Assembly: GCA_937910695.1 (NCBI GenBank)
Contig: CALEMW010000054.1
Location: 13,831 to 77,830 of the forward strand
DNA: 64,000 nt
Direction: 5' to 3'
Source: an uncultured bacterium
Lineage (GTDB): Bacteria > Krumholzibacteriota > Krumholzibacteriia > LZORAL124-64-63
Each line of letters starts with the position of its first letter. Position 1 is the first letter of the stretch. Under the pieces are notes generated by a model. The model was not told where the DNA came from. It made no database searches and saw nothing but the letters and a program-made list of their open reading frames with translations. Both the position numbers and the translations under genes were made by a program. Positions 5,767 to 55,448 of the stretch are shown here, in pieces.

Positions 5767-6963
5767 TCAGCGGGAAAGCGTGATCTTAGTCGTGGTCGTA
5801 CTCGATCCACTGCGCATCCGCGCCAGGTACGTGCCGGAGGGAACGATGTGTCCCCCGACATCGAGTCCCTGCCAGACGATCGAGCCCCGCCCAGCAGGCA
5901 GAAAACCGTCGATCAGCTTCACCACGCGGCGCCCCTTGATGTCCAGAAGCTCCAGCAGCGCCGGGCCTTCGACCTCAAGAGCATAACTCAGGGTGATCCT
6001 GGGATTGAAGGGGTTCGGGTATCCCTCGAGCACGACGACAGCCGGGGGCAACTGGCCCACCCCGGTCCCCACAGTCAACTGATAGGCGAGGACGAGTTGA
6101 TCCATCCCCTGCGCCTCGGTATAGGAATACCCGCTTACGTAGAGCCGACCCAGGGAGTCGATCGTGAGCGCCAGTCCCTCGTCGGTGATGTGATCGACGC
6201 CGTCCCAGCGCTCGACCCATCTTATCTTGCCGATGGTGGGCTCGAGACCGAGGGTGGCGACGTCCCACGACGTGCCGGTCCCGTCGCTGAACCCCGTCAC
6301 GACGATGTCGCCGTTCGGAGCGAAGGTCACGGCGTTGGCCACGTCGTACCAGCCCTGCGGCCCTGCATAGCTCTGACTCCAGACGGTCGCACCGTTCGAG
6401 CCGTCGAGCTTAACGATCAGGTAGTCGCCCGCCGTTGAGCCGACGAGGACCGGGTTGCCCGCGTCGTCGAGGATCATCTCGGACGGGTCGTCGGCGCTGG
6501 CGCCGAGGTGGTTGTAGGACACCGACCAGACGGGCGTGCCGTCGCTGCCGTCGTATTTCGCCACGGCGATGTCGTAGGACGTGGCGCCGCCCCACTCCTT
6601 CCAGGCTGCGATCACATCGCCCGCCTCATCCACGCAGACCCAGCCGTCTCCGCTCTGATCGTTCACCAGACCCGATTCGTTGCGGGCCCAGAGAGCGCCG
6701 CCGTTGGCGCCGTCGTACTTCACGATCATCAGGGTCGCCGAGTTGTCGGCGTTCTGGACCAGGCCCGAGACGACAGGACAATCGTCGTTTCCCACAGCGA
6801 CGCCCAAGGCGCGGTCGTCCATGCGGGCGGCCCCACCCTCCTTGGCCTCCCATAGAGGTGCACCGTCGGCATTGGCGAATTTGATGGTGACCAGCTCGTC
6901 GTCGCGTCCGGTCACGAACATGCGCCCGGCGATCACGATGTCGTCGGAGCCATCGAGGGTCAT
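5767..6963 (-). CDS. C-terminal 398 codons of a secreted BamB/PQQ-like beta-propeller repeat protein ending in a T9SS type-A / FlgD-Ig C-terminal sorting domain
   Basis: C-terminus 'YPNPFNPRITLSYALEVEGPALLELLDIKGRRVVKLIDGFLPAGRGSIVWQGLDVGGHIVPSGTYLARM'. Repeats of the form 'DxxIVAKLDGSNGATVWS'. In frame with 7072..7419 across a single TGA. Confidence 0.6.
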   Translation of the reverse strand: MTLDGSDDIVIAGRMFVTGRDDELVTIKFANADGAPLWEAKEGGAARMDDRALGVAVGNDDCPVVSGLVQNADNSATLMIVKYDGANGGALWARNESGLVNDQSGDGWVCVDEAGDVIAAWKEWGGATSYDIAVAKYDGSDGTPVWSVSYNHLGASADDPSEMILDDAGNPVLVGSTAGDYLIVKLDGSNGATVWSQSYAGPQGWYDVANAVTFAPNGDIVVTGFSDGTGTSWDVATLGLEPTIGKIRWVERWDGVDHITDEGLALTIDSLGRLYVSGYSYTEAQGMDQLVLAYQLTVGTGVGQLPPAVVVLEGYPNPFNPRITLSYALEVEGPALLELLDIKGRRVVKLIDGFLPAGRGSIVWQGLDVGGHIVPSGTYLARMRSGSSTTTTKITLSR

Positions 6964-7071: not shown

Positions 7072-7419
7072 TCAGCCAACGCAACCCAGGATGTGGCCGC
7101 CGACGATCACATCCCCTGCCGCGTCGCAAGCGACGCCGCTGACCGCCATGTCCGAGGTGTCGAACGCAGGAATGCGCCGGGACCAGAGTTCGGCGCCGGT
7201 CTCGCGATGGAGCTTGCGCACCAGCATGTCCGAACCGTCGATGCCGTCGTGGCTGCTGCCGGCAACCACCAGGTGCTGGTCCGAAGTGATGCAGACCACA
7301 TCGCCATGGTCGTCGTAGAGGCCGCCGCCGTCATACGCATCGGACCAGAGAAAGGTCGGGTTCGCCTGTGCCAGGGCGGGGATGATCAGGCACAGACAAC
7401 AGGCAAGAACCCACTTCAT
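7072..7419 (-). CDS. N-terminal part (signal peptide + first propeller blades) of the same gene as 5767..6963, cut off by an in-frame TGA at 7072..7074
   Basis: 'MKWVLACCLCLIIPALAQA' signal peptide. Translation through the TGA gives '...GHILGCVG*GHGDDIVVAKLDGGTGEVLWFQHY...', which continues the repeat pattern. Confidence 0.55.
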   Translation of the reverse strand: MKWVLACCLCLIIPALAQANPTFLWSDAYDGGGLYDDHGDVVCITSDQHLVVAGSSHDGIDGSDMLVRKLHRETGAELWSRRIPAFDTSDMAVSGVACDAAGDVIVGGHILGCVG

Positions 7420-7741
7420 CAGGCAACTCCTCGTTAAACCATAGTTATTTAGTCGCTTATAGCCGACCCCAAGACTGCACGCCCGGGAACTTACGGCATT
7501 ATATCATAGTTCAATGAGCCGGTCGAGATCCGGACCGATCCAGGAGAGCAGCAGAGTGCCGGATGTCCTTGACACTTCGTGAATTGCGTAACAGTCTCTC
7601 CGTTGCTGCTCCCGGAACGTCATGAAGTTGTCATTTTTTTCTTTGGGAGCCCGCAGCCAGATCGCTAAGATGTGAACTGTCGAACTACTTCACGTCTGCC
7701 CACTCCGTCGGCCCAGCCGACGACGACGAGTCCAAGGAGGA

Positions 7742-8281
7742 ATGATGAAGCGCATGAGCCTGATCCTCGCGCTCGCCCTGGTTACCATGGCTGCCGCGAC
7801 CGCCACCTTCGCCGCCGATCCCGAGATCATCGGCGCTCCCAAATGCATGATGTGCCACAAGGCCAAGACCGGCGACCAGGCCGCGATCTGGGAAGCCTCC
7901 GCTCACGCCGGTGCTTTCGAGACTCTCAAGGGCGAGAAGGCAGTCGCCATCGCCGCCGAGAAGGGCCTGGGCAACCCCTGGGAAGAGGCCACTTGTCTGG
8001 GATGCCACACGACCCAGCACTTCACCGGCGCCGCCGTGAACGCGACCGGCAAGTACGAACTGACCGAGGGTGTGAGCTGCGAAGCTTGCCACGGAGCCGG
8101 CTCGGCCTACAAGTCCAAGAAGGTCATGGAAGATCATGACGCAGCCGTCGCCGCCGGCATGCTCGTTGCCGACGAAACGACTTGCGTGAAGTGTCACAAC
8201 GACAAGAGCCCGACTTTTAAGGGCTTCGACTACGCGACGTACTGGGAAAAGATCAAGCACCCGGTTCCCGCCGCCGAGTAG
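7742..8281 (+). CDS. Periplasmic tetraheme c-type cytochrome
   Basis: Signal peptide. Four CxxCH motifs (CMMCH, CLGCH, CEACH, CVKCH). AGGAGG RBS. Confidence 0.8.
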   Translation: MMKRMSLILALALVTMAAATATFAADPEIIGAPKCMMCHKAKTGDQAAIWEASAHAGAFETLKGEKAVAIAAEKGLGNPWEEATCLGCHTTQHFTGAAVNATGKYELTEGVSCEACHGAGSAYKSKKVMEDHDAAVAAGMLVADETTCVKCHNDKSPTFKGFDYATYWEKIKHPVPAAE

Positions 8282-8301
8282 TTCGAATCGAACTGACGGA
8301 A

Positions 8302-8336
8302 AAGGCCCCCGGCTTGCAGCCGGGGGCCTTTTCTTG
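8302..8336. terminator. Rho-independent terminator hairpin between convergent cytochrome genes
   Basis: 'AAGGCCCCCGGC ttgca GCCGGGGGCCTT' 12-bp stem followed by TTCTTG. Confidence 0.7.
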
Positions 8337-8356
8337 TCCTGCGACGGCACTATGAA

Positions 8357-10327
8357 TCAGCTGGTCGGGCCATCCCTCTTGTCCGTCTCGGTCCCTTCAA
8401 CGATCTCACGACCGGCCATGAGTTCGCCTTCGGCCTCGACCCTGGTCCTGACCGTATGGCGCTGCTCGACGAGCTTCACTCCCGGGTGCTCGTGCTGGTA
8501 CATCTCCTGGGGCATCATCCCGTTGATCCAAGACGGGTTCATGGGATAGACCTCGGGATTGAACACCGTGGCGTACATGTGCCAGACAAGGATGGCCAGG
8601 AAGGCCAGCCAGGCCTCGTAGTAATGGATGACAAGCATCACGTCCAGGAAGCCCCGCGGCACGAGATGCACGACCCTGTTGTCGAACCACAGCGCGAAAC
8701 CGGAGATCACCATCACCACGGTTCCCCAGATCAACGCCCAGTACTCGGCCTTCTCCACGTAGGAGAACCTGCCGAACTGAGGCGCGTCCTTGCTGAAGCC
8801 GAGATTGAACTTGAGCTTCTGGAACACCTGCACGGCGTCGGTCCAGGTCGGCGTCATGTCCTTGAGGAAATCGCGGCCGCGAGCCGTGAGGAGGATGAAC
8901 AAAGTGTGCCAGATGGCGCCAAAGATCATCAACACGGCCGATCCGCGGTGAATGACGCCGCGGACAGCGTATCCGCCCTCATGCCCGAAGAAGAGCTGGC
9001 TCCACCAGGCATCATAGAAGCGCAGTGAAAATCCGGTGACGACGAGCACCGAGAACGACAGGGCCAGAATCGTGTGCTGGAACACTTCTCCGGGAGTCAT
9101 TCGACGCACCTGGGGACGTTTGTTCAGAACGGAGTGGATCTGTTTGGCCAGATCGATGAGCCAATGCACGATCATCCCGCCGATCACGCTGAAGATCAGC
9201 ACGAGGTAGATGATGCGCACGACGTTGGCGATGCCGGTACGGTGTCCGGTGGCCGTCTCGTGGATCCTCTGGCTCGCGACGTCTTCGGCGATGCCTTCGT
9301 GGCAGTGGCCGCACGTTTCCTGCAGGTTGGCCAGGTTCACGGAAGAACGGGGGTCGGACGAAGGCAGGATCAGGTGGGCGCCGTGGCATGAAGCGCAGTT
9401 GGCCACCTGTTTGTCGCCCGCCTTGCTCTTCAAGCCGTGATAAGAATCCACGAAGGACTGCAGCCGCCCGGTGGGTAGATTGTATTTCTCGTTGAGACTC
9501 GCGAGTTCGTGACACGGTGTACAGGTCGCCTCGGCAAGCCGATAGGGACTGACAGGAGAGCGGCTATCCTGGGTCGGTAAAATTCCGTGTTCGCCGTGGC
9601 ACGTCGTACAGGTGGGGGTGTCGACTTCGCCGCGCTTAAGGAGCTGACCGTGAACACCCACTAGATAGTCCTGCGAAATGGCGTTGTGACACTGGCCGCA
9701 GGTCTCGTGGATGTTGAAGTGGGCGATGGAGGACCTGGCGTCGCTAGGTGGCAGGATCCGGTGGGCGCTGCCGCCCGTTGAGTGACAGTCGTTGCAGCTA
9801 GCCGCCTGATACAATCCACCGGCCGCCGCCTTGCCGTGGACACTCATGCTGTAGACCCGGATCGGGTGTCTGAACTTGATGTTGAGATCGTCGGTCAGGG
9901 TCGAGTCTTCGTGACACACGCCGCAGGTGTTGGGCAGGTTGATGGGATTGGTCAAGGCATGGCGGTCTGATGACGGTAGGATCAAGTGAGTACCATGACA
10001 ATCCGAACAGACCGGAATGTGCTCGGAAACTCCGACAACAGCCCGACCATGCACTTTATATTCGTCCGAAACATCTTCATGACATCCGTCACAGGCAGCG
10101 CGGGCCAGCTTCTCGGCATGGGGCAGTTCCACGATGTCTGCGTGGCATTCGATGCAGTCGAGCCCTTCGTGGACTCCTCCGAGAAGATGGTCGGCTGTGA
10201 CCTCGACGGGGTCTCCGCCGGTATCGGTATGACAGTCGGCACAGTCCGCCGCCGTGAAGTCCTGTGCGAGAGCCGGAGCAGTCAAAAGGACTAGCAAGAG
10301 CAGGGATCGAATCACAGGTACCGCCAT
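8357..10327 (-). CDS. CbcL-like fusion protein: periplasmic multiheme (11 x CxxCH) c-type cytochrome fused to a C-terminal diheme cytochrome b membrane domain (HydC/FdnI / cytochrome b561-like)
   Basis: Start most likely ATG 10327 (GGAGG 6 nt upstream; 10342 also possible). Signal peptide. CADCH, CIECH, CDGCH, CSDCH, CGVCH, CNDCH, CGQCH, CTTCH, CTPCH, CASCH, CGHCH. C-terminal TM helices with conserved His ('MIVHWLI','IWHTLFILL','HYYEAWLAFLAILVWHMY'). Confidence 0.75.
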   Translation of the reverse strand: MAVPVIRSLLLLVLLTAPALAQDFTAADCADCHTDTGGDPVEVTADHLLGGVHEGLDCIECHADIVELPHAEKLARAACDGCHEDVSDEYKVHGRAVVGVSEHIPVCSDCHGTHLILPSSDRHALTNPINLPNTCGVCHEDSTLTDDLNIKFRHPIRVYSMSVHGKAAAGGLYQAASCNDCHSTGGSAHRILPPSDARSSIAHFNIHETCGQCHNAISQDYLVGVHGQLLKRGEVDTPTCTTCHGEHGILPTQDSRSPVSPYRLAEATCTPCHELASLNEKYNLPTGRLQSFVDSYHGLKSKAGDKQVANCASCHGAHLILPSSDPRSSVNLANLQETCGHCHEGIAEDVASQRIHETATGHRTGIANVVRIIYLVLIFSVIGGMIVHWLIDLAKQIHSVLNKRPQVRRMTPGEVFQHTILALSFSVLVVTGFSLRFYDAWWSQLFFGHEGGYAVRGVIHRGSAVLMIFGAIWHTLFILLTARGRDFLKDMTPTWTDAVQVFQKLKFNLGFSKDAPQFGRFSYVEKAEYWALIWGTVVMVISGFALWFDNRVVHLVPRGFLDVMLVIHYYEAWLAFLAILVWHMYATVFNPEVYPMNPSWINGMMPQEMYQHEHPGVKLVEQRHTVRTRVEAEGELMAGREIVEGTETDKRDGPTS

Positions 10328-10700
10328 GATGGCCTCCAACATGAGATCGTGGACTCGACGTTCTAGTCCCTAGGTTGCTCAATGCGAATGCAAAATCAAG
10401 TTCAGATCCAAAATCCCCATTGAATTCATGGGTGTTACATCGTTTCGAATATCATATATCATTAATACGATCACTCTACACCTAGTCGATTACTAGGATT
10501 ATACCTGAATAGACAGCGTCTTCATATTTCACAACTTACAGTTTTTTGGAAATGGATCTCATTGTTGCTTATCTCATTCGGGATCATCAGGTTAGAACAT
10601 CGATCATTTGTGAGGAGAATTCGGGGTTCGTCCATCAACGTTAAGAAAACAACGTCCTGATCCATGTGGGAGAGCTTTCGAGCCTCCCGGGGACGGAACT

Positions 10701-11330
10701 TCAGCCGGTCAGACCCAAGCTGTAGAACCCCTCGCCTCGCTGGGCGTCCGGCCGGAACCCCATGGTCTCGAGATAGCGGCGGTGTTCTTCTCCAGCTGCG
10801 TGCGCCGTGTATTGACGTAAACCGCCGTCGAGATAATCCGCACGACGATCGCGATAAAAAAAACGGGCACACTGAAGGTCGCGATAGCTGGGAATCACAT
10901 AGTCGAGCCCTATGACGACGTCGTCGCCGTCGCGGCGGCAGACCACCAGGCCGACCGGAAGCATGTTGCGCAAGATGAAGACGATGGTCGCGCCCTCGAG
11001 GCTCCGGCGCTCGAAACAGGGGAAGAAGCGGGCGATGTCGCCGGCGTGAAAATCGAGAAAACGCCCCAGGTATGCATTGTCGGCCCGAGATATCTCCAAC
11101 AGCTCGAAGGTATCTTCCAGCCGCCTCATCCGCAGGAGGTAGGCCACGTTCACCACGGCGATGAAACCGTTCACCACAAGAACGGGATGTGCTCCCACCA
11201 ACCAGCCATATATCGCGAAGACTACGGCGCCGATGAGATTCAACACTCTCAGTTTCACGATCGAACTCATCGTCAGCGACACGGCAACCAGCACCGACGC
11301 CGCATATCCCAGAATGTCCATCCACTCCAT
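10701..11330 (-). CDS. Membrane protein: N-terminal 3-TM YgjV-like domain plus C-terminal soluble domain (possibly GNAT-like)
   Basis: Hydrophobic N-terminus 'ILGYAASVLVAVSLTMSSIVKLRVLNLIGAVVFAIYGWLVG'. C-terminal '...RRYLETMGFRP...GEGFYSL'. Overlapping 727-aa antisense ORF is R-rich artefact. Confidence 0.4.
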   Translation of the reverse strand: MEWMDILGYAASVLVAVSLTMSSIVKLRVLNLIGAVVFAIYGWLVGAHPVLVVNGFIAVVNVAYLLRMRRLEDTFELLEISRADNAYLGRFLDFHAGDIARFFPCFERRSLEGATIVFILRNMLPVGLVVCRRDGDDVVIGLDYVIPSYRDLQCARFFYRDRRADYLDGGLRQYTAHAAGEEHRRYLETMGFRPDAQRGEGFYSLGLTG

Positions 11331-11408: not shown

Positions 11409-12536
11409 CTATTCGACGAGACTCGACAGAAAGACACCCGCAGCCACCGCCGAGCCGATCACCCCGGCCACGTTGGGAGCCATGGCATGCATGATCAGGA
11501 AGTTCTGCGGATCCTCTTTTGCACCCACCATCTGGCAGACCCGCGCCGAGTCGGGCACGGCGGATACGCCGGCCGCGCCGATGATCGGGTTGATCTTGTC
11601 CTTGAAGACCAGGTTCATGCCCTTGGCGAACAGGATGCCGGCGGCCGTGGCCACGGCGAACGACGCCGCGCCGAGCACGAAGATCTTGATGGACGAAGGC
11701 GTGAGAAACACCGATGCATCGGTGCTCGTGCCCACACAGAGACCGAGCAGGATGGTGATGGTGTCGATCAGGGCGTTGCGCGCCGTCTTGGCCAGACGTT
11801 CGGTCACGCCGCTTTCCTTGAGCAGGTTGCCGAAGAAGAGCATGCCCAGCAGCGTGATGGCCCCCGGCGCGATCATGGCCGACAGCAGGAAGGCCACGAC
11901 CGGGAAGGTGATCCGCAGGCGCTTGCTCACAGGACGCGAGGGCTTCATGCGGATCAGCCGTTCTTCGCGCGTGGTGAGCAGCTTGATGATGGGCGGTTGG
12001 ATGACCGGCACCAGCGCCATGTACGAATAGGCGGCGATGGCGATGGGTCCCAGGAACTCCGGCGCCAACTGCGAGGCGAGGAAGATGGCCGTGGGACCGT
12101 CGGCGCCGCCGATGATGCCGATGGCCGCCGCCTGGTTCACCGCGAACCCCATGGCGAGGGCTCCGAAGAACGTGATGAAGATGCCCGCCTGCGCCGCGGC
12201 GCCCAGCATGATCAGCCGCGGATTCGAGAGCATGCAGCTGAAGTCGGTCATGGCCCCGATGCCCAGGAAGATCAGCGGCGGATACCATCCCTTGCTCACG
12301 CCCTGATAGAGCACCGACAGCACGCTGCCTTCCTCGTACACGCCGATGTTCATGCCCTCGGAATAGGGAATGTTGCCGACGAGGATGCCGAAGCCGATGG
12401 GCACCAGCAGCAGCGGCTCGTAGTCTTTGACCACGGCGAGGTAGATGAACAGGCACCCGACGATGAGCATGACCAGGTTGCCCCAGCTGAAGTTGCCCAG
12501 GGCGCCGACCTGCAGGAATTCCCAGAGAACGTCCAT
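11409..12536 (-). CDS. Na+-translocating decarboxylase beta subunit (OadB/MmdB/GcdB family)
   Basis: 375-aa polytopic membrane protein matching the OadB family along its length ('GFGILVGNIPYSEGMNIGVYEEGSVLSVLYQGVSKGWYPPLIFLGIGAMTDF'). Confidence 0.85.
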   Translation of the reverse strand: MDVLWEFLQVGALGNFSWGNLVMLIVGCLFIYLAVVKDYEPLLLVPIGFGILVGNIPYSEGMNIGVYEEGSVLSVLYQGVSKGWYPPLIFLGIGAMTDFSCMLSNPRLIMLGAAAQAGIFITFFGALAMGFAVNQAAAIGIIGGADGPTAIFLASQLAPEFLGPIAIAAYSYMALVPVIQPPIIKLLTTREERLIRMKPSRPVSKRLRITFPVVAFLLSAMIAPGAITLLGMLFFGNLLKESGVTERLAKTARNALIDTITILLGLCVGTSTDASVFLTPSSIKIFVLGAASFAVATAAGILFAKGMNLVFKDKINPIIGAAGVSAVPDSARVCQMVGAKEDPQNFLIMHAMAPNVAGVIGSAVAAGVFLSSLVE

Positions 12537-12539
12537 GGC

Positions 12540-12938
12540 CTACTCGAACTCGACCAGTTGCTGGTTTTCGCGCACGCTGTCGCCGGCGCCGACGAGCACG
12601 GCCTTGACCCGGCCGGCTCCCGGCGAGACGATGGCGGTGTTCATCTTCATGGCCTCGATGATGATCAGGTCCTGGCCCTGAGCGACGTCGTCCCCCGCCT
12701 TGCACTTGACCTCGATGACCGTCCCTGCGATGGGCGACACCACACCGCCGCTGCCTCCGGCCGACGGAACAGGTGCCTGCTGGGCGACCGGTGCCGACGA
12801 CGGCGCGGAAGCCGACAACGCCTGCGTCGCCGTCATCTGGGGCAGGGCTCCCGTCGGGCCGAACTCGTCGCGCTTGGCGTCGAGGACCTCCACGTCGACC
12901 TCGTAGGCGACGCCGTGGACGGTGATCTTCAACTTCAT
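12540..12938 (-). CDS. Biotin carboxyl carrier subunit (biotinyl domain) of the decarboxylase
   Basis: 'IIIEAMKMNTAIVSPGAGRV' biotinylation motif (EAMKM). Ala/Pro-rich linker. Confidence 0.8.
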   Translation of the reverse strand: MKLKITVHGVAYEVDVEVLDAKRDEFGPTGALPQMTATQALSASAPSSAPVAQQAPVPSAGGSGGVVSPIAGTVIEVKCKAGDDVAQGQDLIIIEAMKMNTAIVSPGAGRVKAVLVGAGDSVRENQQLVEFE

Positions 12939-12955
12939 TTCGTACTCCTATCGGG

Positions 12956-13312
12956 TCAACGGTGTCGCACGTTCTTGCGTTCGATCAGATGGGATCCCTG
13001 CAGCTGGGACCGCCCCTGGGCCGACCACGGGCTGCGTTTGTGGTCCGCCGGCATGAGCCGCCGGATGCTGCTGATCCTGAAGCGGCCGCGTAGCACCGTG
13101 GCGGCGGCGGCCGCGATGAGCACGACGGTGGTCGCGTCGATGGTCGGCTCTCTGTTGTAGGCGTCGGCATCGCGGGCCTTCTCCTGGTGCCGCCATTTTT
13201 CGTCGAGCTGTCGGATGCCCGAGATCGTCATGGCGATGATCATCAACACCGCAAAGACGATCAGCAGACCGACGAGGGCCAACGGCAGGTTTTGGACAAG
13301 CAACTCGGACAT
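12956..13312 (-). CDS. OadG-family small membrane subunit of Na+-pumping decarboxylase
   Basis: Single N-terminal TM 'LALVGLLIVFAVLMIIAMTISGI'. Sits between the carboxyltransferase and BCCP genes. Confidence 0.6.
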   Translation of the reverse strand: MSELLVQNLPLALVGLLIVFAVLMIIAMTISGIRQLDEKWRHQEKARDADAYNREPTIDATTVVLIAAAAATVLRGRFRISSIRRLMPADHKRSPWSAQGRSQLQGSHLIERKNVRHR

Positions 13313-13321
13313 CGCGTGCTC

Positions 13322-14887
13322 CTAGAGGGGAATCAGCCCGTGCTTTTTCTGGGGCCGCTGCTCCCGCTTGGATTTGAGGATCTCCAGGGACTGGGCGATG
13401 AAGATCCGCGTGTCGGCGGGTTCGATGATGTCGTCGACGAGGCCGTGGGCGGCCGCCTCGTAGGGGTTGGCGAAGGCTTCGGTGTACTCGTCCAGCTTCT
13501 GTCGACGCGCGGCAGCAGGGTCGTCGGCCCCGGCGATCTCCTTGCGGTAGATCACGTTCACGGCCCCCTCGGCCCCCATCACGGCGATCTCGGCGCTGGG
13601 CCAGGCGGCCACGCGGTCGGCGCCCATGTCCTTGCCGCACATCGCCAGGTAGGCGCCGCCATAGGCCTTGCGCACGATGATCGTGATCTTGGGCACCGTG
13701 GCGGCGCCGTAGGCGAAGAGCATCTTGGCGCCGTGGCGGATGATGCCGCCGTACTCCTGCTGCACGCCGGGCATGAAACCCGGCACGTCGACGAAGGTGA
13801 CCAGGGGAATGTTGAAGGCGTTGCAGAAACGGATGAAGCGCGACGACTTGTCGCTCGAGTCGATGTCGAGCACTCCCGCCTTGTTCATGGGATTGTTGGC
13901 GACCACGCCGACGGTGGCCCCCTCCATGCGCCCGAAGCCGATGATGATGTTCGGCGCCCACTGCTCCTGGACTTCCATGAAGTCGCCGCCGTCGAGGACG
14001 GCGCGCAGCACCTGGTGCATGTCGTAGGGCTGACGGGGATCGTCGGGCACGATGGAGTTGAGGGCGGGAATCGGCCCCACCTCGTCGTCGTGCAGCTCGG
14101 GGTAGACCGGCGCCTCTTCGGTGTTGTTGCTGGGCAGGAACGAGAGCAGGCGCTTGGTGATTTCGGCGGCCTCGGCGCCGCACGACGCTTCGAAGTGCAC
14201 CACGCCCGAGTAATGAGTATGGCTGTACACGCCGCCCAGGTCTTCGGCGGTGACTTCTTCGCCGGTGACCTGCTTGATCACCGACGGGCCGGTGATGAAC
14301 ATCTGACCCTCGCGGCGCACCTGGATGATGAAGTCGGTCAACGCCGGCGAGTAGGCCGCGCCGCCGGCGCAGGGGCCGGCGATGATGCTGATCTGGGGCA
14401 CGACCCCGGACATCAGCACGTTGCGGTTGAAGATGCCGCCGTAGCCGGCCAGCGAGTCGACACCCTCCTGGATACGGGCGCCGCCGCTGTCGTTGATGAA
14501 GATGAAGGGATCGCCGGTCTTCAGGGCGTCGTCCATCACGCCGTGGATCTTCCGCGCGGTGGCTTCGCCCACGGCGCCGCCGGCGACGGTGAAGTCCTGG
14601 CTGGCTACGTAGACGGGACGTCCGCCGAGCAGGCCGCTGCCGGTCACCACGCCCTCGCCGGGAAACTCCTTGTCCTGCATCCCGAAGTTGGTGCAGCGGT
14701 GCTTCATGAAGAGGTGGGTTTCCAGGAACGTGTCCGGGTCGAGCAGCATGGCCAGTCGCTCGCGGGCGGTGTGCTTGCCGGCGGCGTGGAGCTTTTCGAT
14801 ACGGTCGGCGCCGCCGCCCAGGTACAGGCGTTCGCGACGCTCGAGGAGCTGTTCGATCTTCGTCGGCTCAGGTGTGGGCTCGGCCAT
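13322..14887 (-). CDS. Acyl-CoA carboxyltransferase subunit (methylmalonyl-CoA decarboxylase alpha / propionyl-CoA carboxylase beta family)
   Basis: 521 aa. 'GGGADRIEKLHAAGKHTARERL', 'SGGARIQEG', 'ISIIAGPCAGGAAYSPALTDF', 'RKAYGGAYLAMCGK' carboxyltransferase motifs. First gene of the 4-gene operon. Confidence 0.85.
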   Translation of the reverse strand: MAEPTPEPTKIEQLLERRERLYLGGGADRIEKLHAAGKHTARERLAMLLDPDTFLETHLFMKHRCTNFGMQDKEFPGEGVVTGSGLLGGRPVYVASQDFTVAGGAVGEATARKIHGVMDDALKTGDPFIFINDSGGARIQEGVDSLAGYGGIFNRNVLMSGVVPQISIIAGPCAGGAAYSPALTDFIIQVRREGQMFITGPSVIKQVTGEEVTAEDLGGVYSHTHYSGVVHFEASCGAEAAEITKRLLSFLPSNNTEEAPVYPELHDDEVGPIPALNSIVPDDPRQPYDMHQVLRAVLDGGDFMEVQEQWAPNIIIGFGRMEGATVGVVANNPMNKAGVLDIDSSDKSSRFIRFCNAFNIPLVTFVDVPGFMPGVQQEYGGIIRHGAKMLFAYGAATVPKITIIVRKAYGGAYLAMCGKDMGADRVAAWPSAEIAVMGAEGAVNVIYRKEIAGADDPAAARRQKLDEYTEAFANPYEAAAHGLVDDIIEPADTRIFIAQSLEILKSKREQRPQKKHGLIPL

Positions 14888-31990: not shown

Positions 31991-32101
31991 GTTGCGTGAC
32001 AGGCGGAGGCTCCAACCCTGAGCCGCACGTTAGAATGCCCCTTATTGATCGTACCTGTTCGGCGAGTTATTGCGGCCCTATTCCTATCGAAACCGGAGAT
32101 C

Positions 32102-35100
32102 ATGATGATCACAGCATTCGCCGTTCTGGCCTTGTCTGCAGCGATCACGGCAGCCGGCGGCTCCATGACCGGCAAACCCAGAGTCGTTCCCGCCGACGAT
32201 ACCCACGTATTTGTGGCCCACGGCCCCGCCGTCGCCAAGAGCGACACCGTCACCCTGTTCGGCGGGCCCCTGCGCAACGACGGGAAGTTCCAGGACGACT
32301 TCAATCCGGCGCTGCCGGATTTCGAAGGCTGGACGGGAGTGGACATGAGGGCCGTCACCGTTTCCCGCTGGCACATCGACACCTTCAACTCCCCCACGGG
32401 CACCGCCGCCGCCTGGTGCGGCGAGATGTTCGAGAGCTGCGATGTCGATGATCCGCCCGAGGGCTACGGCAATAGCTACGAAGAGTACCTGGAATGGACC
32501 GGCCGGGTCGCGGATCCCGACCTCCCGACGAACATGACGGTGAGCTTCACGCTGAACTACGACAACGAGCCGGGGTACGACTACCTGTACCTGCAATCTC
32601 TCGGTGCCGCCGGCTGGAACGTCGTGGCCACCTACAACGGCAGCACCCTTCTCGAGGGAACGGGTTTCTTCCAACCTGTGTCGCCCGTCCTGAGCTTCAC
32701 CGTTCCGGCCTCCGATCTCGGCGGCGACGACGGCGACGAAATCCGGTTGCGGTTCCGCGCGACCTCGGACGGTGGGTGGGCCGATTCCGATTGTCTGTGG
32801 CCCACGTCCGGGCTGGCGCAGGTCGATGATGTCGCTGTGAGCGGGGACAATGGATTGGTCGCGACCTTCGACGACTTCGAGAACGGACTGGAGGGTGCGA
32901 GCTGGGCCCTGGGCTTCCCTATCGGTTACGGGAACTTCACGAAGATCTGGCCCCTGCTCGACGACCTCGATCCCTGTGTGCAGAACGATACGCCGCAGGC
33001 GGCGTTCATCGACGATGGGGTGGTGGTGCCCTGCACCGGTGGGACGTTGGGAACGTCCTGGACCTACGGCCCCGGGGGCTTCGTCGTCAACATGACCGGC
33101 GGCTGTGCAGGTCCGACGATGCACGGCTGGAACGAGATCTGGTCGCCGGCGATCGCCTGGGTGGATCCGGCGACGGGAATCGAGCTCGGCAGGACGCATC
33201 GCGGCGGCAGGTTGGAATATGGGATCTGGCCACATCTGCCGATCTCAAACGGGTGCTTCTATCTATGGCATGTTCGCTCGTCTTCCGATCATGGGATGAC
33301 ATGGACGGATTGGATGGATCGCAACTACGTCTATTACGGATCGACATCATACCAACGTGACTCGAGAGACGTCACCGATCTCGTCGTCGACAACCCGACC
33401 CATATCCAAGTGGCTCTCGGTTTCAGGGAGTTGGGGTGGATCTGGCCGATCTACCATGACCCGACCCCCGCCCCCTACTTCGACAACATCCGCTTCGACG
33501 TCTTCACCCTGACCGGTCCCACCCTCGCCGCCCAGGCCGACCTGCTCGCCCAGGACGCCTTCCCCGCCTCGGGCGTGCTCGACTTCGCCGAGCTCGCCGC
33601 CAACTCCATACGCTTCGACTGTGCCCGGGATCTCATAGAGGACGCAGCCACCGCCATCATGCCCGGCGACTCGCTTGTCTGCAGCGTCGCCTCCCATCGC
33701 CCGGGCGCCGTCCTCACCCAACCGCCCCGCCTGTACTACACCATGAAGCCGAACCCCCTGTTCGACCCCTGCCGGGAGCACCCGACGAGAGGCTGGGTCG
33801 TCGGAGACTCGGCGCGCACCGCGGCCGGCGAGGCCGTGCCCGATCTCTGGGCCTTCGACCTGCCCGACACCGGCTTCTTCTTCCCCGGCGACGTGATCCA
33901 CTACCTGTTCCACGCCGAGGACGACGTGGGCGGCGACGTCGAAGCCACGACCCTGCCCGCCTCGACCGTCGGCTTCGACGTGTTCCCCGGCGACCCCGGC
34001 TACGACCCGCTGCTCTGGCCCGCCGAGTTCACGGTGCGCGGGCTGCCGACGATGACCGGTTCCGAGCCCGGCGATCAGCCTACGGTGCTGCTGTGGGACG
34101 ACGGCGGGACGCGTCCGGACGCAGAGCGCTGGGAACCGGTCATGGCCGAGCTCGGCTACGACCTGGGCGTGCACTTCGATCTGTACCGGACCCAGGCCGC
34201 TTCGTCGGGCGTGAGCAACGGGCTGGGGTCGCGGGCGACGGTCGATCAGATCGCCGGTTACGAGACGGTCCTCTACTCCTGCGGGGATCAGGGGTCCTAC
34301 ACCCTCAACCATGTGAGCCGATACGGCGACAAGTCCGACGATCTCGGCCTGCTGGACGGCTGGTTGCCGCTGGGAGGCAATCTGCTGGTCTCGGGTGACA
34401 ACGTGGTGTACGACCTGGACAGGGGCCAGGGAGCAGCCGGCGACGCATTCGCCGCGGACTGGATCTCGGCCGCCTACATCGCCCCTGCGATCGAGGACCT
34501 CATCGATGGTCAGCTTGCACCGCTGATCATTGCCATCCCCGGCAACCCCGCCGGCCTCGCCCTGCCCTTCACCGTCTACGGCGACTGTCCCGGCCGCCGG
34601 CGCTTCAACGCCTTCGAGCCCGCAGGCGACGCGTTCGCCCTGGCGGAGTGGACCGATCCGTATGGCCAGGGCGGCGTCTATCCTTATGCCGCCGTCCTCG
34701 CCCATGAGACGGCGGGATCGCGCATCGTGACCATCGCCGCCGATCTGTCTGCCTGGATCGATCAGGACGGCGGGGCGGTGTCTCGACTCCACGCCCTCGC
34801 TTCGCTGCTCCAGTGGTTCGGGGAGCCGGTGCCGGGCGGGTCGACCGGTGTGGAGGACACACCGCGAGCGCTCGCCGCCCGCGCCTATCCGAACCCGTTC
34901 AATCCGCAGACGACGATCGTCTTCGACGTGCCGCGGCGCGGGCGGGTGTCGGTGGCCGTGTACGACGTGCGCGGACGGCTGGTGCGGCAGTTGGCGGACG
35001 GGAAGTACGAGGCTGGTTCGGCCTACGAAGCGACATGGACCGGTGACGACGACACCGGGCGATCCGTGGCGACAGGAGCCTACTTTGTCGAAGTGCGAAC

Positions 35101-35143
35101 CGGCGGGGAGTCAGTGGTGGAGAAGGTCATGCTGGTAAGGTGA
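32102..35143 (+). CDS. Large (~1010 aa) secreted protein of unknown function with T9SS type-A/FlgD-Ig C-terminal sorting domain
   Basis: Signal peptide 'MMITAFAVLALSAAITAAGG'. C-terminus 'AYPNPFNPQTTIVFDVPRRGRVSVAVYDVRGRLVRQLADG...TGAYFVEVRTGG'. Confidence 0.7.
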   Translation: MMITAFAVLALSAAITAAGGSMTGKPRVVPADDTHVFVAHGPAVAKSDTVTLFGGPLRNDGKFQDDFNPALPDFEGWTGVDMRAVTVSRWHIDTFNSPTGTAAAWCGEMFESCDVDDPPEGYGNSYEEYLEWTGRVADPDLPTNMTVSFTLNYDNEPGYDYLYLQSLGAAGWNVVATYNGSTLLEGTGFFQPVSPVLSFTVPASDLGGDDGDEIRLRFRATSDGGWADSDCLWPTSGLAQVDDVAVSGDNGLVATFDDFENGLEGASWALGFPIGYGNFTKIWPLLDDLDPCVQNDTPQAAFIDDGVVVPCTGGTLGTSWTYGPGGFVVNMTGGCAGPTMHGWNEIWSPAIAWVDPATGIELGRTHRGGRLEYGIWPHLPISNGCFYLWHVRSSSDHGMTWTDWMDRNYVYYGSTSYQRDSRDVTDLVVDNPTHIQVALGFRELGWIWPIYHDPTPAPYFDNIRFDVFTLTGPTLAAQADLLAQDAFPASGVLDFAELAANSIRFDCARDLIEDAATAIMPGDSLVCSVASHRPGAVLTQPPRLYYTMKPNPLFDPCREHPTRGWVVGDSARTAAGEAVPDLWAFDLPDTGFFFPGDVIHYLFHAEDDVGGDVEATTLPASTVGFDVFPGDPGYDPLLWPAEFTVRGLPTMTGSEPGDQPTVLLWDDGGTRPDAERWEPVMAELGYDLGVHFDLYRTQAASSGVSNGLGSRATVDQIAGYETVLYSCGDQGSYTLNHVSRYGDKSDDLGLLDGWLPLGGNLLVSGDNVVYDLDRGQGAAGDAFAADWISAAYIAPAIEDLIDGQLAPLIIAIPGNPAGLALPFTVYGDCPGRRRFNAFEPAGDAFALAEWTDPYGQGGVYPYAAVLAHETAGSRIVTIAADLSAWIDQDGGAVSRLHALASLLQWFGEPVPGGSTGVEDTPRALAARAYPNPFNPQTTIVFDVPRRGRVSVAVYDVRGRLVRQLADGKYEAGSAYEATWTGDDDTGRSVATGAYFVEVRTGGESVVEKVMLVR

Positions 35144-39516: not shown

Positions 39517-39894
39517 CACCGACGTTTCGGGCAGGTTCGAACGGTTCACGGAAGCTCCTTGGTTCGAGGTCGGCGAGAGTATGAGGGTTCGAATTGTGCC
39601 GTGCTTGCGAAAACTGGACGGAGATATGGATTCTCGGAGTGTCCGGCAAGAGATAGAACTCCGTGGAACACAAATACGATTGATCGACTCCTGTATTTTT
39701 GTAAAATTATCATCATATTGAATTTTACAGATCATAATATAAGTAACCTGTGATACAATCGCATACTCGTCAGATATCGACATCTTTAGCGCCGATGAAC
39801 GCCTTTTAGGCCTAATCGGCATATGACAGGTCCGGAGTTGGATCAAAATCGCAACATGGTGTGGCGACACGATCCGACGGAGAAAGGAAGGCCC

Positions 39895-42800
39895 ATGAAA
39901 CGCACTCTTGTGATGGTCACCCTGATTTTCGCTACCCTATGCGCCTCGATGGCATCGGGCGCGACGCAGGCCATCCCCCTGCAGGCCGAACGCACGGCCC
40001 TCGACCTGGTCGACACCCGTGGCGACGCCCTCCAGTTCCGCGTGAACATCGCCGAGCTGCAGGCCATGGACGTGACCACGTCCGCCGGCGATTTCTCCCG
40101 GATCGTCATCCCCGGGTTCCACAACTCGATGATCGACGGCAGCCCCGAGCTGCCCATGATGAATCGGTTGTTGGAACTTCCTTTCGGCGCCAATGCGCGC
40201 GTCGAAGTGGTTTCGGCATCGCGGCGCGTGGTGCGATTGGCCGACCACGGCATCACCACACCGCTGATGCCCCACCAGCCCAGCGTCTCCAAGAGCGCCG
40301 ACCTGGACAATCTGCCCTTCATTTACGACCGGGCCGCCTATGCCGGCACCGTGGCGCGTGAACTGGTGCGGGTCGTCGAGCTGGGTCAGCTGCGTTCCCG
40401 CGGGCTCGTCCGTTGCGAGATTTCCCCGGTGGAGTACCTGCCTGAAAGCGGCGAGCTGATCATCCACGACCAGATCGAATTCCGCGTCATATTCGACGGC
40501 GTCGACCGCGCCGGCGAGGCCGACATGCTGGCCCGAACCTGGAGCCCCTTCTTCTCGCCCCTGTTCACCAACGTTGCAGGATCGCGGGCGAACCACTTCG
40601 ACTTCCCCGACCTCGTCAAGAACCCCGTGACGATGGTCGTCGTGACCCCGCCCGAGTTCCAGTACGTGTTGACCGACTTCGTCAACTGGAAGACCGAGCG
40701 CGGCTTCAACATGATCATGGGCGTGACCGGCACCCCCGAAGTGGGCGCCACCGCCGCCTCGATCCAGTCCTACCTGCACGGCCTCTACAACGCCGCCACG
40801 CCCGAGCTGCCGGCCCCGAGCTTCGTGCTCTTCGTCGGCGACGTGGCTCAGATGCCCACGTTCACCGAGGGCGGCGACGCCACCGACCGTCCCTACTGCG
40901 CGGTCGACGGCGACCTCTATCCGGACATGTACTACGGCCGCTTCTCGTGCACCAACGTGAGCCAACTCCAGGCTCAACTCGACAAGACGATGATGTACGA
41001 CCAGTTCACGATGCCCGACCCCAGCTACCTGGGCAACGTGACGATGATCGCCGGCGTCGACGGGAGCTTCGCCCCGACCCACGGCAACGGCCAGATCAAC
41101 TACGGCACCGAGCACTACTTCAACGCCGCCCACGGCATCAACAGCTACACGTACCTGTATCCCGCTTCGGACGCCGCCGGCGCTCCGGCCGAGATCGTGG
41201 CGCATGCGAGCGAGGGCGTTGGCTTCATCAACTACACCGCCCACGGCAGCCAGACAAGCTGGTCCGACCCCGCCTTCACCCAGACGAACATCAACAGTCT
41301 GACGAACACCGGGAAGTATTTCCTGGCCATCGGCAACTGCTGCCTGACCTCGACCTACGACTACGGCGAGTGCTTCGGCGAGACCTTCCTGCGCGCCGCG
41401 GGTAAGGGCGCCGTGGGTTACATCGGCGGCTCCAACTCGACCTACTGGGACGAGGACTACTGGTGGGGCGTGGGCTTCCACGCCAGCTCGCAGATCGACG
41501 GCTCGGCCTATCCCGTCGAGAGCACGGGCATCGGCGTGTACGACGGCATCTTCCACGACCACGGCGAGGCTCCCGCCCAGCAGTACGTGACCAACGACGC
41601 CGTCGTGTTCTGCGGCAACATGACCGTCACCGAATCCGGATCCAGCCGTGAGACCTACTACTGGAACATCTACAACCTGTTGGGAGACCCTTCCCTGTCG
41701 ACCTACATGGGCGTGCCGACGACCAACCCCGTCAGCCATCAGCCCGTGTTCACGAACTCCCCGGACCTCGTCATCGACGCGGCCCCGGGCAGCTACGTGG
41801 GTCTGACCCAGGGCGGCGTCATCTTCGCCGCCGGCACGATCCCCGCGGGCGGCCGTCTGGCCCTGCCCATCAACGGCGTGCTCACCCCGGGCACGGCCAA
41901 GCTGGTCGTCACTGCCCAGAACCGTGAGCCCTATGTCGAGGTCGTTCCGGTCATCGTGCCGGCGACCGTGCTGATCGACCCCGCGGCCATCGACGCCAAC
42001 GTCGCCACCGACGTGACCGTCACGGTCTACGGCGAGGACGGCGTGACCCCCGTGGTCGGCCTGAGCGTCTGGGCCGAGGGCCTGGGCTATGCCACCGCGC
42101 CGGTGCTGACCGACGCCCTGGGCGTGGCCGTGCTTAACGTGACCTACCCCTACGGTCCGACCGTGGACATCGTGGGCCGCAACATGGCCGACCCGTACGA
42201 GCTCTTCCGCGAGCCCCTGACGGTCAACGCCTTGGCCCTGGCTTCACCCGATCTGTCGGTTTCGACCGGCATCGGCATGGCCGACATGTTCCCGCTGAAC
42301 CTGCCCGCCGACCTGAACGCCACGGTCGCCGAGCCCGGGTTCACGCTGCACGCCTTCCTGCCCGACGGCAGTGAGCTGACCACCGGCGCCGCGTCGATGA
42401 GCATCACCGCCGGCGACTTGGGCCTTGTGACCGGCGTGATCGCGGTCAGCGGCTACGACATCTACACCGAGTCCTTCGACGTCATCGAAGCCTTCGGCAC
42501 CATGACGGGCGTCGTGACTGCCGGCGGCGGCGGCGCGGCCGGTGCGGTCGTGCGTCTGATCGACGGCGGCGGCATCGAAGCCTACAGCGCGACCTGCGAC
42601 GGCGCGGGCGCCTACGACTTCGGCGGCGACATCCTGGTCGCCAACTACGACGTCGTGATCGACTACTTCGGCTATCTGCACTATGAGATGCCGTACTTCG
42701 TGAACTTCGGCGCCAACGTCTACGACATCGCGTTGACGGCGGCCCCGAGCGGCGTACTCACCGGTACGCTGAGCGATTCGGTCACCGGCGAGCTGCTCGA

Positions 42801-44715: not shown

Positions 44716-44842
44716 TTTCCCTTTGCCCCTGGTATTGCTTTATCATTCTGCAAAAATACGTTAGAATGATAGGGTACTGATGGACTGGATTCCGCGTCCT
44801 CCCGCCGCGACGCCGTCACAGCACACCCGATCCCAAGGATGG

Positions 44843-54256: not shown

Positions 54257-55396
54257 ATGACAACATCGAAGACCCGCTGCATCGGCATCCTCACCTCGGG
54301 CGGCGACTGTCCGGGGCTGAACGCCGCGATCCGCGGCATCACCAAGGCCGCCATCCAGGACTACGGCATTCAGGTCGTGGGCGTGCTCGACGGGTTCCGC
54401 GGGCTGGTCGAGAACCGCACCGTGCCGCTGAAGCACGACAACCTGAGCAACGTGCTGACCCTCGGCGGCACGATCCTCGGCACCTCGCGCGACAAGCCGG
54501 CCAAAATGGCCATGGGCGACCGCATCATGGACATGACCGACGTCGCGGTGCAGAACGCCCGCGCCAACGGCTTCGACTGTCTGGTCTGCCTGGGCGGCGG
54601 CGGCACCCAGAAGAACGCCTACCATCTCCACAAGGCCGGCGGCCTCGACGTGATGACGCTGCCGAAGACCATCGACAACGACGTGGCCGGCACCGACGTC
54701 AGCTTCGGCTACGACACGGCCCTGACCATCGCCGCCGAGGCCATCGACCGCCTGCACACCACGGCCACGAGCCACGACCGCATCATCATCGTGGAGGTGA
54801 TGGGCAACAAGGCGGGTTGGTTGGCGCTGGGCGCCGGCATCGCCGCGGGGGCCGACGTGATCCTGATCCCGGAGATCCCCTACGACATCGAGGCCGTGAA
54901 GGAGTACCTGATCGAACGTCGGCGACGGTTCGGCAAGCGGTTCTCCATCGTCGTGGTTGCCGAGGGCGCGGTGTCGAAGGAAGAGGCGGCCCTGGGCGCA
55001 CGGCCCAGTACGGAAACTCTGTTCGAAGACGAGGACAACGGCGTCTTCGGTCCGAAGCTGGTGATGGAATCGTTGGCGGGGCGTCTGGCCCGCCAACTCC
55101 AAGCCATGACCGGCACCGAGGCCCGCGTGACCTCCCTGGGGCACGTACAGCGCGGCGGCGTGCCGACGCCCACCGACCGCCTGCTCTGCACCCGACTGGG
55201 CGTCCGCGCCGCCGACTTCCTGGCCAAGGGCCGGTACAACGTGATGGTCGCAGTCCAGGGCAGAAAGATCGTTTCGGTGCCATTGGCCGAAGTGGCCGGC
55301 GTCCGGCGCACGATTCCCCTGAAGCATCCCTGGCTCGACGCCGCCATGAAGGTGGGCACCTGTCTGGGTGTGTCGCGCAGCGAGCTCCGGCCCTAG
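54257..55396 (+). CDS. pfkA: 6-phosphofructokinase (PfkA family)
   Basis: 'CIGILTSGGDCPGLNAAIRGI', 'LVCLGGGGTQKNA', 'TIDNDVAGTDVSFGYDTA', 'IVEVMGNKAGWLAL' PFK motifs. Confidence 0.85.
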   Translation: MTTSKTRCIGILTSGGDCPGLNAAIRGITKAAIQDYGIQVVGVLDGFRGLVENRTVPLKHDNLSNVLTLGGTILGTSRDKPAKMAMGDRIMDMTDVAVQNARANGFDCLVCLGGGGTQKNAYHLHKAGGLDVMTLPKTIDNDVAGTDVSFGYDTALTIAAEAIDRLHTTATSHDRIIIVEVMGNKAGWLALGAGIAAGADVILIPEIPYDIEAVKEYLIERRRRFGKRFSIVVVAEGAVSKEEAALGARPSTETLFEDEDNGVFGPKLVMESLAGRLARQLQAMTGTEARVTSLGHVQRGGVPTPTDRLLCTRLGVRAADFLAKGRYNVMVAVQGRKIVSVPLAEVAGVRRTIPLKHPWLDAAMKVGTCLGVSRSELRP

Positions 55397-55448
55397 AGCC
55401 TCGGTTCATCTGTTTTCTTCCCCGACGATTCGCGTTAATGTCACCACC

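Follow-up and report, generated by a model that had tools for sequence, protein, structure and literature searches.

A 64,000-nucleotide stretch from an uncultured Krumholzibacteriota bacterium (assembly GCA_937910695.1, contig CALEMW010000054.1, positions 13,831 to 77,830 of the forward strand; the window hereafter) carries a convergent pair of cytochrome genes, a small one for a tetraheme cytochrome c and a large one for an 11-heme cytochrome c fused to a diheme cytochrome b. Based on its domain architecture, heme ligands, homologues and gene neighbourhoods, we assign the large protein with high confidence to the CbcL/MtrH/MtoC family as a bc-type quinone gate, within which it forms a separate subfamily and is not an orthologue of CbcL. 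We further propose, as a reasonably probable account, that menaquinol is oxidised at the large protein and that the electrons are handed to periplasmic cytochromes. An earlier sequence-only reading of this DNA had described the pair and likened it to a CbcL-type quinol:periplasm electron-transfer module. Both open reading frames (ORFs) are confirmed, motif counting returns 11 CxxCH in the large one, and the module assignment gains support from the domain architecture, the ligand set and homology to CbcL-type proteins. The two ORFs, 7742-8281 (plus strand) and 8357-10342 (minus strand), are the only ones in the window with at least two CxxCH motifs, and the cluster is therefore not a chance pattern.

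Architecture of the large protein

Counted from its first in-frame ATG (10342), the large ORF encodes 661 amino acids (aa), and all residue numbers of the large protein given here refer to this version; subtracting 5 yields the numbering of a 656-aa version that begins at the second ATG (10327). The latter is the more likely start, since it lies 5 nt downstream of a GGAGG sequence and is also used by the public protein P0001, which has 656 residues and is 99% identical. A signal peptide is followed by the 11 CxxCH motifs (residues 34-348) and by five hydrophobic helices (368-587), the latter found both by hydropathy and in an AlphaFold2 (AF2) model.

The CxxCH motifs lie at residues 34, 63, 84, 112, 140, 183, 215, 245, 274, 316 and 344, and neither CxxCK nor any other variant heme motif is present in the protein. 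In an alignment of 39 homologues (54-78% identical to the large protein), the periplasmic part contains exactly eleven further invariant histidines, H58, H75, H98, H119, H169, H194, H231, H252, H302, H323 and H361. Eleven invariant candidate distal histidines for eleven hemes argue against a catalytic site, and the pattern fits a chain of low-spin, bis-His electron-transfer hemes with no open catalytic position. Hemes 4-11 belong to four di-heme modules in tandem, each following the pattern CxxCH-G-x-H-x-IL-x3-D-x2-S...TCxxCH, and a single CbcL-type di-heme module aligns to all four, with 42-46% identity to the three that lie outside the main alignment. For CbcL, spectroscopy has shown nine bis-His hemes, and the biochemical work also gives a potential of -194 mV and PpcA as the partner (PMC9129911).

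The cytochrome b domain that had been expected at the C-terminal end is recovered by the Pfam family PF01292 (prokaryotic cytochrome b561 / Ni_hydr_CYTB), which matches residues 415-597 above its cut-off (E 1.4e-11). As a single sequence, the domain found no match in the PDB with phmmer; a profile of 17 homologues aligns full-length with FdnI of E. coli (1kqf_C, E 1e-4), and the fold is most similar to FdnI, next to HyaC and next to CybB. The bis-His heme b ligands, whose presence the sequence-only reading had presupposed, are retained: His18, His57, His155 and His169 of FdnI align to H423, H465, H573 and H588, all four invariant in the 39 homologues, and a fifth conserved histidine, H479, is found in addition to these positions. 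The stretch R525-W539 (RFSYVEKAEYWALIW), with 12 of its 15 positions invariant in the same homologues, is located where FdnI has its quinone-site loop, from which a putative quinone site facing the cytoplasm is inferred. The predicted topology places the heme domain in the periplasm, leads helix 368-400 to the cytoplasm, and puts both ends of the four-helix bundle on the cytoplasmic side as in FdnI; a K/R-rich loop after the linker helix, read from the sequence, is consistent with a cytoplasmic location.

The b domain thus resembles FdnI (PDB 1kqf chain C) and HyaC/HydC in its four-helix fold, in all four heme-ligand histidines and in having both termini in the cytoplasm. Identity is only 16-17%, however, and the formate dehydrogenase gamma model TIGR01583, despite an E-value of 3e-12, scores 46.8 bits against a cut-off of 115.85. 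The large protein also differs in the fusion of its b domain, via an extra helix, to a multiheme c domain, in the additional, invariant H479, in a PMNPSW motif conserved at the C-terminal end, and in the absence of adjoining fdnGH-type or hydrogenase genes. Neither in the window nor in three close relatives does a gene for a molybdopterin or Fe-S subunit adjoin it.

A five-helix, 11-heme subfamily

The CbcL/MtrH/MtoC family comprises proteins with 3-23 hemes from 15 phyla, often encoded next to mtrAB/mtoAB (PMC6295460). CbcL itself (GSU0274 of Geobacter sulfurreducens) has 9 CxxCH at residues 34-257, six transmembrane helices and 619 aa (PMC6295460 Table S2), and is a menaquinol oxidase needed for acceptors at or below -0.1 V (PMC9129911; bioRxiv 10.1101/2022.08.31.506072). 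The large protein shows the features of this family, namely a secreted N-terminal multiheme domain joined to a polytopic C-terminal domain (signal peptide, 11 CxxCH, five helices), a HydC/FdnI-type diheme cytochrome b with conserved histidine ligands, and detectable homology to CbcL-type proteins. The homology is seen with the partial Geobacteraceae CbcL-type sequence P0280; the colinear alignment with the large protein starts at the last di-heme module, runs through the b domain and gives 30% identity over 355 columns (E 2e-32). Machine-read CbcL alignment fragments from the supplement of PMC9129911 served as bait only, not as evidence, and recovered genuine Desulfuromonadales/Geobacteraceae sequences; P0280 and its kin are partial, and their identity as CbcL rests on the bait fragments together with the source names 'Geobacteraceae' and 'Desulfuromonas'. 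The recovered fragment P0272, used as query, likewise returned only partial proteins of at most 394 aa. P0259 and P0264 bridge the two groups, with 32-36% identity to the large protein and about 50% to the CbcL fragments.

CbcL and its Desulfuromonadales orthologues present the same order of parts, i.e. signal peptide, bis-His multiheme domain, linker helix and FdnI/HydC-type diheme b domain. Common to both groups are a di-heme module (CxxCH-x-H-x-(I/V)LP-x-D-x-S...TCxxCH), five conserved transmembrane histidines that include the four b-heme ligand positions and H479, the motif (F/W)x(Y/W)xEK...WG...LWF...(I/V)H...EA...H...PE.(F/Y)PM(N/D), and the C-terminal motif PE-x-(F/Y)-PM. The large protein has 656 aa, 11 hemes in about 340 residues and five transmembrane helices followed by a hydrophilic tail, whereas CbcL has 619 aa, nine hemes in about 250 residues and six helices including a C-terminal one; HYYEAW and EKAEYWAL motifs stand in place of the CbcL-type HSDEAL and WEKFDF; and CbcL-type sequences end in a hydrophobic sixth helix that representatives with HYYEAW lack. 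In CbcL, V205 and F525 act as residues of potential-dependent gating. On account of the heme number, helix number and length of GSU0274 and of HSDEAL versus HYYEAW, we treat the large protein as a separate subfamily and not as a CbcL orthologue.

The 11-heme layout is not new, because PMC6295460 Table S2 (2018) already lists 11-heme members from Opitutae and a mine-drainage metagenome, with CxxCH at 32, 69, 90, 119, 148, 192, 220, 250, 275, 309 and 337; the spacing in these Verrucomicrobia and mine-drainage proteins (PAW67162.1, OIR15077.1) is almost identical to that of the large protein. MtoC/MtrH (Daro_1404, Galf_2006, Rfer_4073) are placed in the same family in PMC6295460. Compared by tabulated description only, MtoC/MtrH and the 11-heme members have six predicted transmembrane helices and 655-729 aa. 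The difference between nine and 11 hemes might correspond to one additional di-heme module; other family members carry 8, 13, 16, 19 or 22 CxxCH motifs, so that no single step size in heme number fits.

More than 5000 homologues of the large protein were found; cluster representatives (50% identity) number 4952 at E <= 1e-3 and 831 at E <= 1e-30. An EKAEYWAL or HYYEAWL motif together with a confirmed relative occurs in at least 598 species-representative genomes (at least 599 motif-matching stretches), and the motif count is exactly eleven in all 113 scorable close homologues and in nearly all of 84 genome loci. The best 80 loci all derive from uncultured bacteria (79 metagenome-assembled genomes and one single-cell genome), labelled as Fibrobacteraceae, Latescibacterota, Krumholzibacteria, Eisenbacteria, Zixibacteria, Ignavibacteria, Gemmatimonadota, Acidobacteriota, Planctomycetota, Myxococcales, Neomarinimicrobiota and others. 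In the searchable literature we found no paper linking CbcL by name to Eisenbacteria, Krumholzibacteriota, Zixibacteria, Latescibacterota or Ignavibacteria. The current understanding of the family is unchanged, as its existence, its variable heme number and its linkage to mtrAB-like genes were published in 2018; what is added is the definition of a well-conserved subfamily with five helices and a fixed set of 11 hemes, widespread in uncultured phyla and present in at least 598 species genomes without any characterised member. The window contributes an intact example of the inner-membrane step in extracellular or periplasmic electron transfer from an uncultured FCB-group lineage.

Likely partner cytochrome, proposed direction of electron flow and alternatives

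The small gene encodes a secreted cytochrome, tetraheme as had been read from the DNA, with four CxxCH, at residues 35, 85, 113 and 148, and profile searches place it in the c554 family (Pfam Cytochrome_C554, PF13435, 57.8 bits against a cut-off of 20.8). Residues 26-125 match c554 of Nitrosomonas europaea (PDB 1bvb/1ft5, E 2e-8), likewise a four-heme periplasmic PF13435 protein, in such a way that the first three heme motifs align; the tetraheme has 179 aa compared to 211 aa in N. europaea c554. The only possible distal ligands conserved across 17 tetraheme orthologues are H55, H173 and M129. With just two non-motif histidines and one methionine conserved for four hemes, one of the hemes may, speculatively, be His/Met-ligated or five-coordinate. 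A nitrifier-type HAO-c554-cM552 system is not indicated, in that the NF043010 model gives 49 bits against an equivalog cut-off of 400 and the 64-kb window contains neither HAO nor cM552 genes, nor any further multiheme ORF. A c554-like tetraheme is present in 19 of 86 loci, and throughout the clade of the window its gene follows the large gene directly, in convergent orientation. It is the likely periplasmic redox partner of the large protein. The 75-bp gap between the two genes holds a perfect hairpin; the region 8275-8365 folds as RNA at -46.3 kcal/mol (z = -5.8), none of 200 shuffled sequences folding as well, and a terminator-like scan also matched 8311-8328. We read the hairpin as a bidirectional intrinsic terminator, according to which the large gene and the tetraheme gene are separate transcription units.

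The proposed mechanism builds on the architecture, ligand set, FdnI/CbcL-type homology, conservation and gene neighbourhoods of the pair, all of which are shown, while quinone type, direction of electron flow, partner and terminal acceptor are inferred. An FdnI-like diheme b bundle with a cytoplasm-facing quinone site would be wired across the membrane to 11 periplasmic bis-His c-hemes. The large protein would oxidise menaquinol with release of protons on the cytoplasmic side, and the electrons would pass along the 11-heme chain to periplasmic cytochromes, the convergent c554-like tetraheme being the obvious first acceptor. The outcome would be an electron outlet to periplasmic or extracellular acceptors for a proteolytic, fermentative heterotroph. 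Such a geometry would conserve no energy at this step, and the membrane potential would then help to load the low-potential hemes. For CbcL, Joshi and co-workers describe cytoplasm-facing quinol oxidation with protons inside, electrons outward and no energy conserved (bioRxiv 10.1101/2022.08.31.506072).

The quinol-oxidase direction itself we favour with moderate confidence, because the genes of the window fit an anaerobic, protein-degrading heterotroph able to use an electron outlet. A four-gene operon for a Na+-translocating methylmalonyl-CoA/oxaloacetate decarboxylase (11409-14887, minus strand; carboxyltransferase of 521 aa, gamma of 118 aa, biotin carrier of 132 aa and OAD beta of 375 aa) is found two genes further upstream than the large gene, a position kept in the related loci L003 and L004. 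The window also encodes three large secreted proteins with C-terminal sorting domains (Por_Secre_tail, FlgD_ig) of the type IX secretion system (32045-35143, 39823-44673 and 44780-47404, plus strand), among them a gingipain-like C25 peptidase of 1616 aa and an M14 carboxypeptidase. The Na+-pumping decarboxylase and the sorted proteases point to an anaerobic heterotroph, and the three secreted proteins to a proteolytic member of the FCB group.

Several observations weigh against this account. Among solved structures the tetraheme is closest to Nitrosomonas c554, which carries electrons towards the quinone pool. The AF2 model of the large protein is of moderate quality (pLDDT 72) and without hemes, and the direct comparison with CbcL-type proteins covers only the last di-heme module and the b domain. 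There is no outer-membrane conduit in the window or its strain-level copies, and with none in the available 64 kb an extracellular acceptor is unsupported for this genome. Finally, no sequence feature fixes the direction of electron flow, and the family includes MtoC of Fe(II) oxidisers (PMC6295460). The main rival is a reversed, MtoC-like operation. Fe(II), reduced humics, sulfur compounds or a partner organism would supply electrons in the periplasm, and these would travel through the tetraheme and then the 11-heme chain to quinone at the cytoplasmic face, whose reduction would take up cytoplasmic protons and build a proton motive force exactly as in Fdn-N. The geometry of FdnI, natively a quinone reductase in a redox loop that generates proton motive force, speaks for such a reversal, as do the Fe(II)-oxidising relatives and the role of Nitrosomonas c554. 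The window, however, encodes neither a periplasmic oxidase nor HAO, Cyc2 or an outer-membrane conduit, its annotated ORFs include no autotrophy genes, and the surrounding genes suggest a proteolytic heterotroph, so that we regard reversal as unlikely, though as an alternative to be taken seriously.

Two further explanations were considered and rejected. That the large protein serves as anchor or electron-transfer subunit of a periplasmic dehydrogenase or reductase, like FdnI, HydC or PhsC in enzymes of the formate dehydrogenase, hydrogenase or thiosulfate reductase type, would account for the PF01292 match, the TIGR01583 E-value and the label 'formate dehydrogenase gamma subunit' that homologues bear in some sources. 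The TIGR01583 score lies far under its cut-off, though, the fused 11-heme domain takes the periplasmic face where FdnH would dock, and genes for catalytic or Fe-S subunits are missing next to the large gene, both in the window and in four of the five other neighbourhoods where genes were called; in the fifth, L005, genes for NrfD, Fe-S and multiheme proteins are clustered about 1 kb downstream. This explanation is therefore very improbable. Slightly less credible still is that the multiheme domain itself reduces nitrite, hydroxylamine or sulfite, as a reductase of the Nrf, HAO or MccA type (NrfB being an electron-transfer subunit and not catalytic), since each of the 11 hemes has a CxxCH and an invariant candidate distal histidine, and neither CxxCK nor a lysine or tyrosine cross-link motif is found.

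Gene neighbourhoods and other features of the window

In the sister locus L003, whose bc protein is 78% identical, three divergent ORFs fill the position of the AT-rich gap upstream of the large gene. The first encodes a 333-aa decaheme cytochrome that scores above the cut-offs of two NCBIfam families, GSU2203 and DmsE/MtrA. The remaining ORFs, of 605 and 122 aa, correspond to a split barrel-like gene, the 605-aa part passing the model 'GSU2204 family CXXCH-containing (seleno)protein, part 1'. As the GSU2204 family is listed as an MtrB/PioB-type outer-membrane barrel selenoprotein in a 2026 review (PMC13188914), the split probably reflects an in-frame UGA that is decoded as selenocysteine, within an outer-membrane protein of the MtrB/PioB type. 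The split gene spans L003:6211-8457 (minus strand), the same arrangement recurs in L007, L009, L017, L018 and L020, and a single CxxCH (HCATCH) is located within the 605-aa part. In relatives, the MtrA-like decaheme reaches 382 bits for the GSU2203 family (cut-off 325) and the MtrB/PioB-like barrel 558 bits for the GSU2204 family (cut-off 350).

The inserted decaheme and barrel module measures 3.5 kb in the sister genomes and occupies the same position and orientation in L003, L007, L009, L017, L018, L020, L036 and L037; it also stands beside the bc gene in L049 and is partly visible at the contig ends of L010 and L030. Relatives of the large gene thus resemble mtoC/mtrH in adjoining an MtrA-like decaheme and an MtrB/PioB-like barrel, whereas the window is without either gene and hence without a porin-cytochrome or MtrAB-type conduit at this locus, and blastn and tblastn detected no remnants of the module in the AT-rich gap or elsewhere in the 64 kb. 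A neighbour-joining tree groups the window with L003, in a clade where the module is present in L007, L009 and L010 too but missing from L004 and L008. The more economical interpretation is that the module was ancestrally present and repeatedly lost. The recurrent pairing with a GSU2203/GSU2204-type conduit, absent here and present in the sister genome, represents a natural presence/absence experiment, a gate with and without an MtrAB-like module, that could help to decide the conduit-less function.

In other lineages, the 11-heme gene is immediately followed by a 19-heme ORF or has 13-heme, NrfD and Fe-S clusters nearby, and in about a third of the loci there is no other multiheme gene. The 19-CxxCH ORF, of about 900 aa and on the same strand, follows the 11-heme gene in L019, L022, L025, L032, L034, L041, L043, L048, L054, L058 and L071, from Zixibacteria, Ignavibacteria and others, and may represent another bc-type paralogue of greater length, comparable to the 19-heme members in PMC6295460. 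A broader and tentative idea, which we consider possible and rather doubtful, is that the five-helix 11-heme 'HYYEAW' subfamily is a general quinone-pool gate of many uncultured phyla with interchangeable partners, and that the lineage of the window recently lost the conduit still present in its sister genome and repurposed the gate, via the c554-like cytochrome, to serve periplasmic or soluble redox partners. The phyla may include the FCB group, Zixibacteria, Krumholzibacteria, Eisenbacteria, Acidobacteriota, Planctomycetota, Myxococcota and Marinimicrobia, and the partners may be c554-like tetrahemes, the selenoprotein MtrAB-like conduit (GSU2203/GSU2204 family) and tandem 19-heme ORFs.

Table 1. 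Features of the convergent cytochrome pair and its flanks, in window positions; residue numbers follow the 661-aa version of the large protein.
Feature	Position	Strand	Details
Secreted tetraheme c-type cytochrome, c554 family	7742..8281	+	179 aa; signal peptide; 4 CxxCH
Perfect GC-rich hairpin between A-run and T-run, in the 75-bp convergent gap	8300..8332	.	RNA fold
Large gene, 11-heme cytochrome c / diheme cytochrome b fusion	8357..10327	-	656 aa
Variable hydrophilic C-terminal tail, residues 621-661	8360..8482	-	Unconserved in homologue alignment; pLDDT < 50
FdnI/HydC-type four-helix diheme cytochrome b domain, residues 401-620	8483..9142	-	
Linker transmembrane helix, residues 368-400	9143..9241	-	Hydropathy; AF2 helix 371-407
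Periplasmic 11-heme domain, residues 27-367	9242..10264	-	Three N-terminal hemes and four tandem di-heme modules
Sec signal peptide, MAVPVIRSLLLLVLLTAPALA followed by QD	10265..10327	-	Hydrophobic N-terminus and AxA motif, read off the sequence
AT-rich upstream intergenic region, presumed promoter	10328..10700	-	Minimum GC 0.34; contains GGAGG (10337-10333)

The AT-rich region upstream of the large gene had been described as about 35-40% GC in a genome of about 67% GC and taken as a sign of complex regulation. Its low GC content stands (39.6% for 10343-10660), the window mean being 64.3% rather than about 67%. Complex regulation is not supported: the region is one of three AT-rich troughs of comparable depth (10301-10690, 30671-31040 and 39561-39880), each immediately upstream of a gene, and no special element was found in it. 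There is no match to Rfam, internal repeats are absent from the region, and no motif is common to the three troughs; a sigma-70-type promoter scan of 7300-10800 returned two sites, no significant excess over the 1.4 expected, none of them on the strand of the large gene within the AT-rich region. Similarity to the upstream region of L003 is only patchy. Most simply, the region is a promoter region. The two other troughs, each with a minimum GC of 0.35, precede genes starting at 31000 and 39823, and strongly AT-rich upstream regions thus recur in this 64% GC genome.

Between the AT-rich gap and the decarboxylase operon lies a gene for a 209-aa membrane protein (10701-11330, minus strand) with a weak, sub-threshold match to YgjV, kept in L003, L007 and L008 and not in L004. 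Beyond the tetraheme gene, about 100 bp separate a 115-aa ORF with a signal peptide (7072-7419, minus strand) from the 398-aa ORF that comes after it (5767-6963, minus strand). Pfam assigns no family to either, and a near-identical copy of the 398-aa ORF in L001 has only a faint PQQ_2 annotation. Similar Gly/Asp-rich repeats are found in the two ORFs, which resemble a single repeat protein that has been split; L003 has this two-ORF arrangement as well. Further along the window, we note two unusual fusions on the plus strand, an 824-aa major facilitator superfamily transporter joined to a spermidine-synthase domain (47481-49955) and a 746-aa SulP sulfate permease joined to STAS and rhodanese domains (55368-57608).

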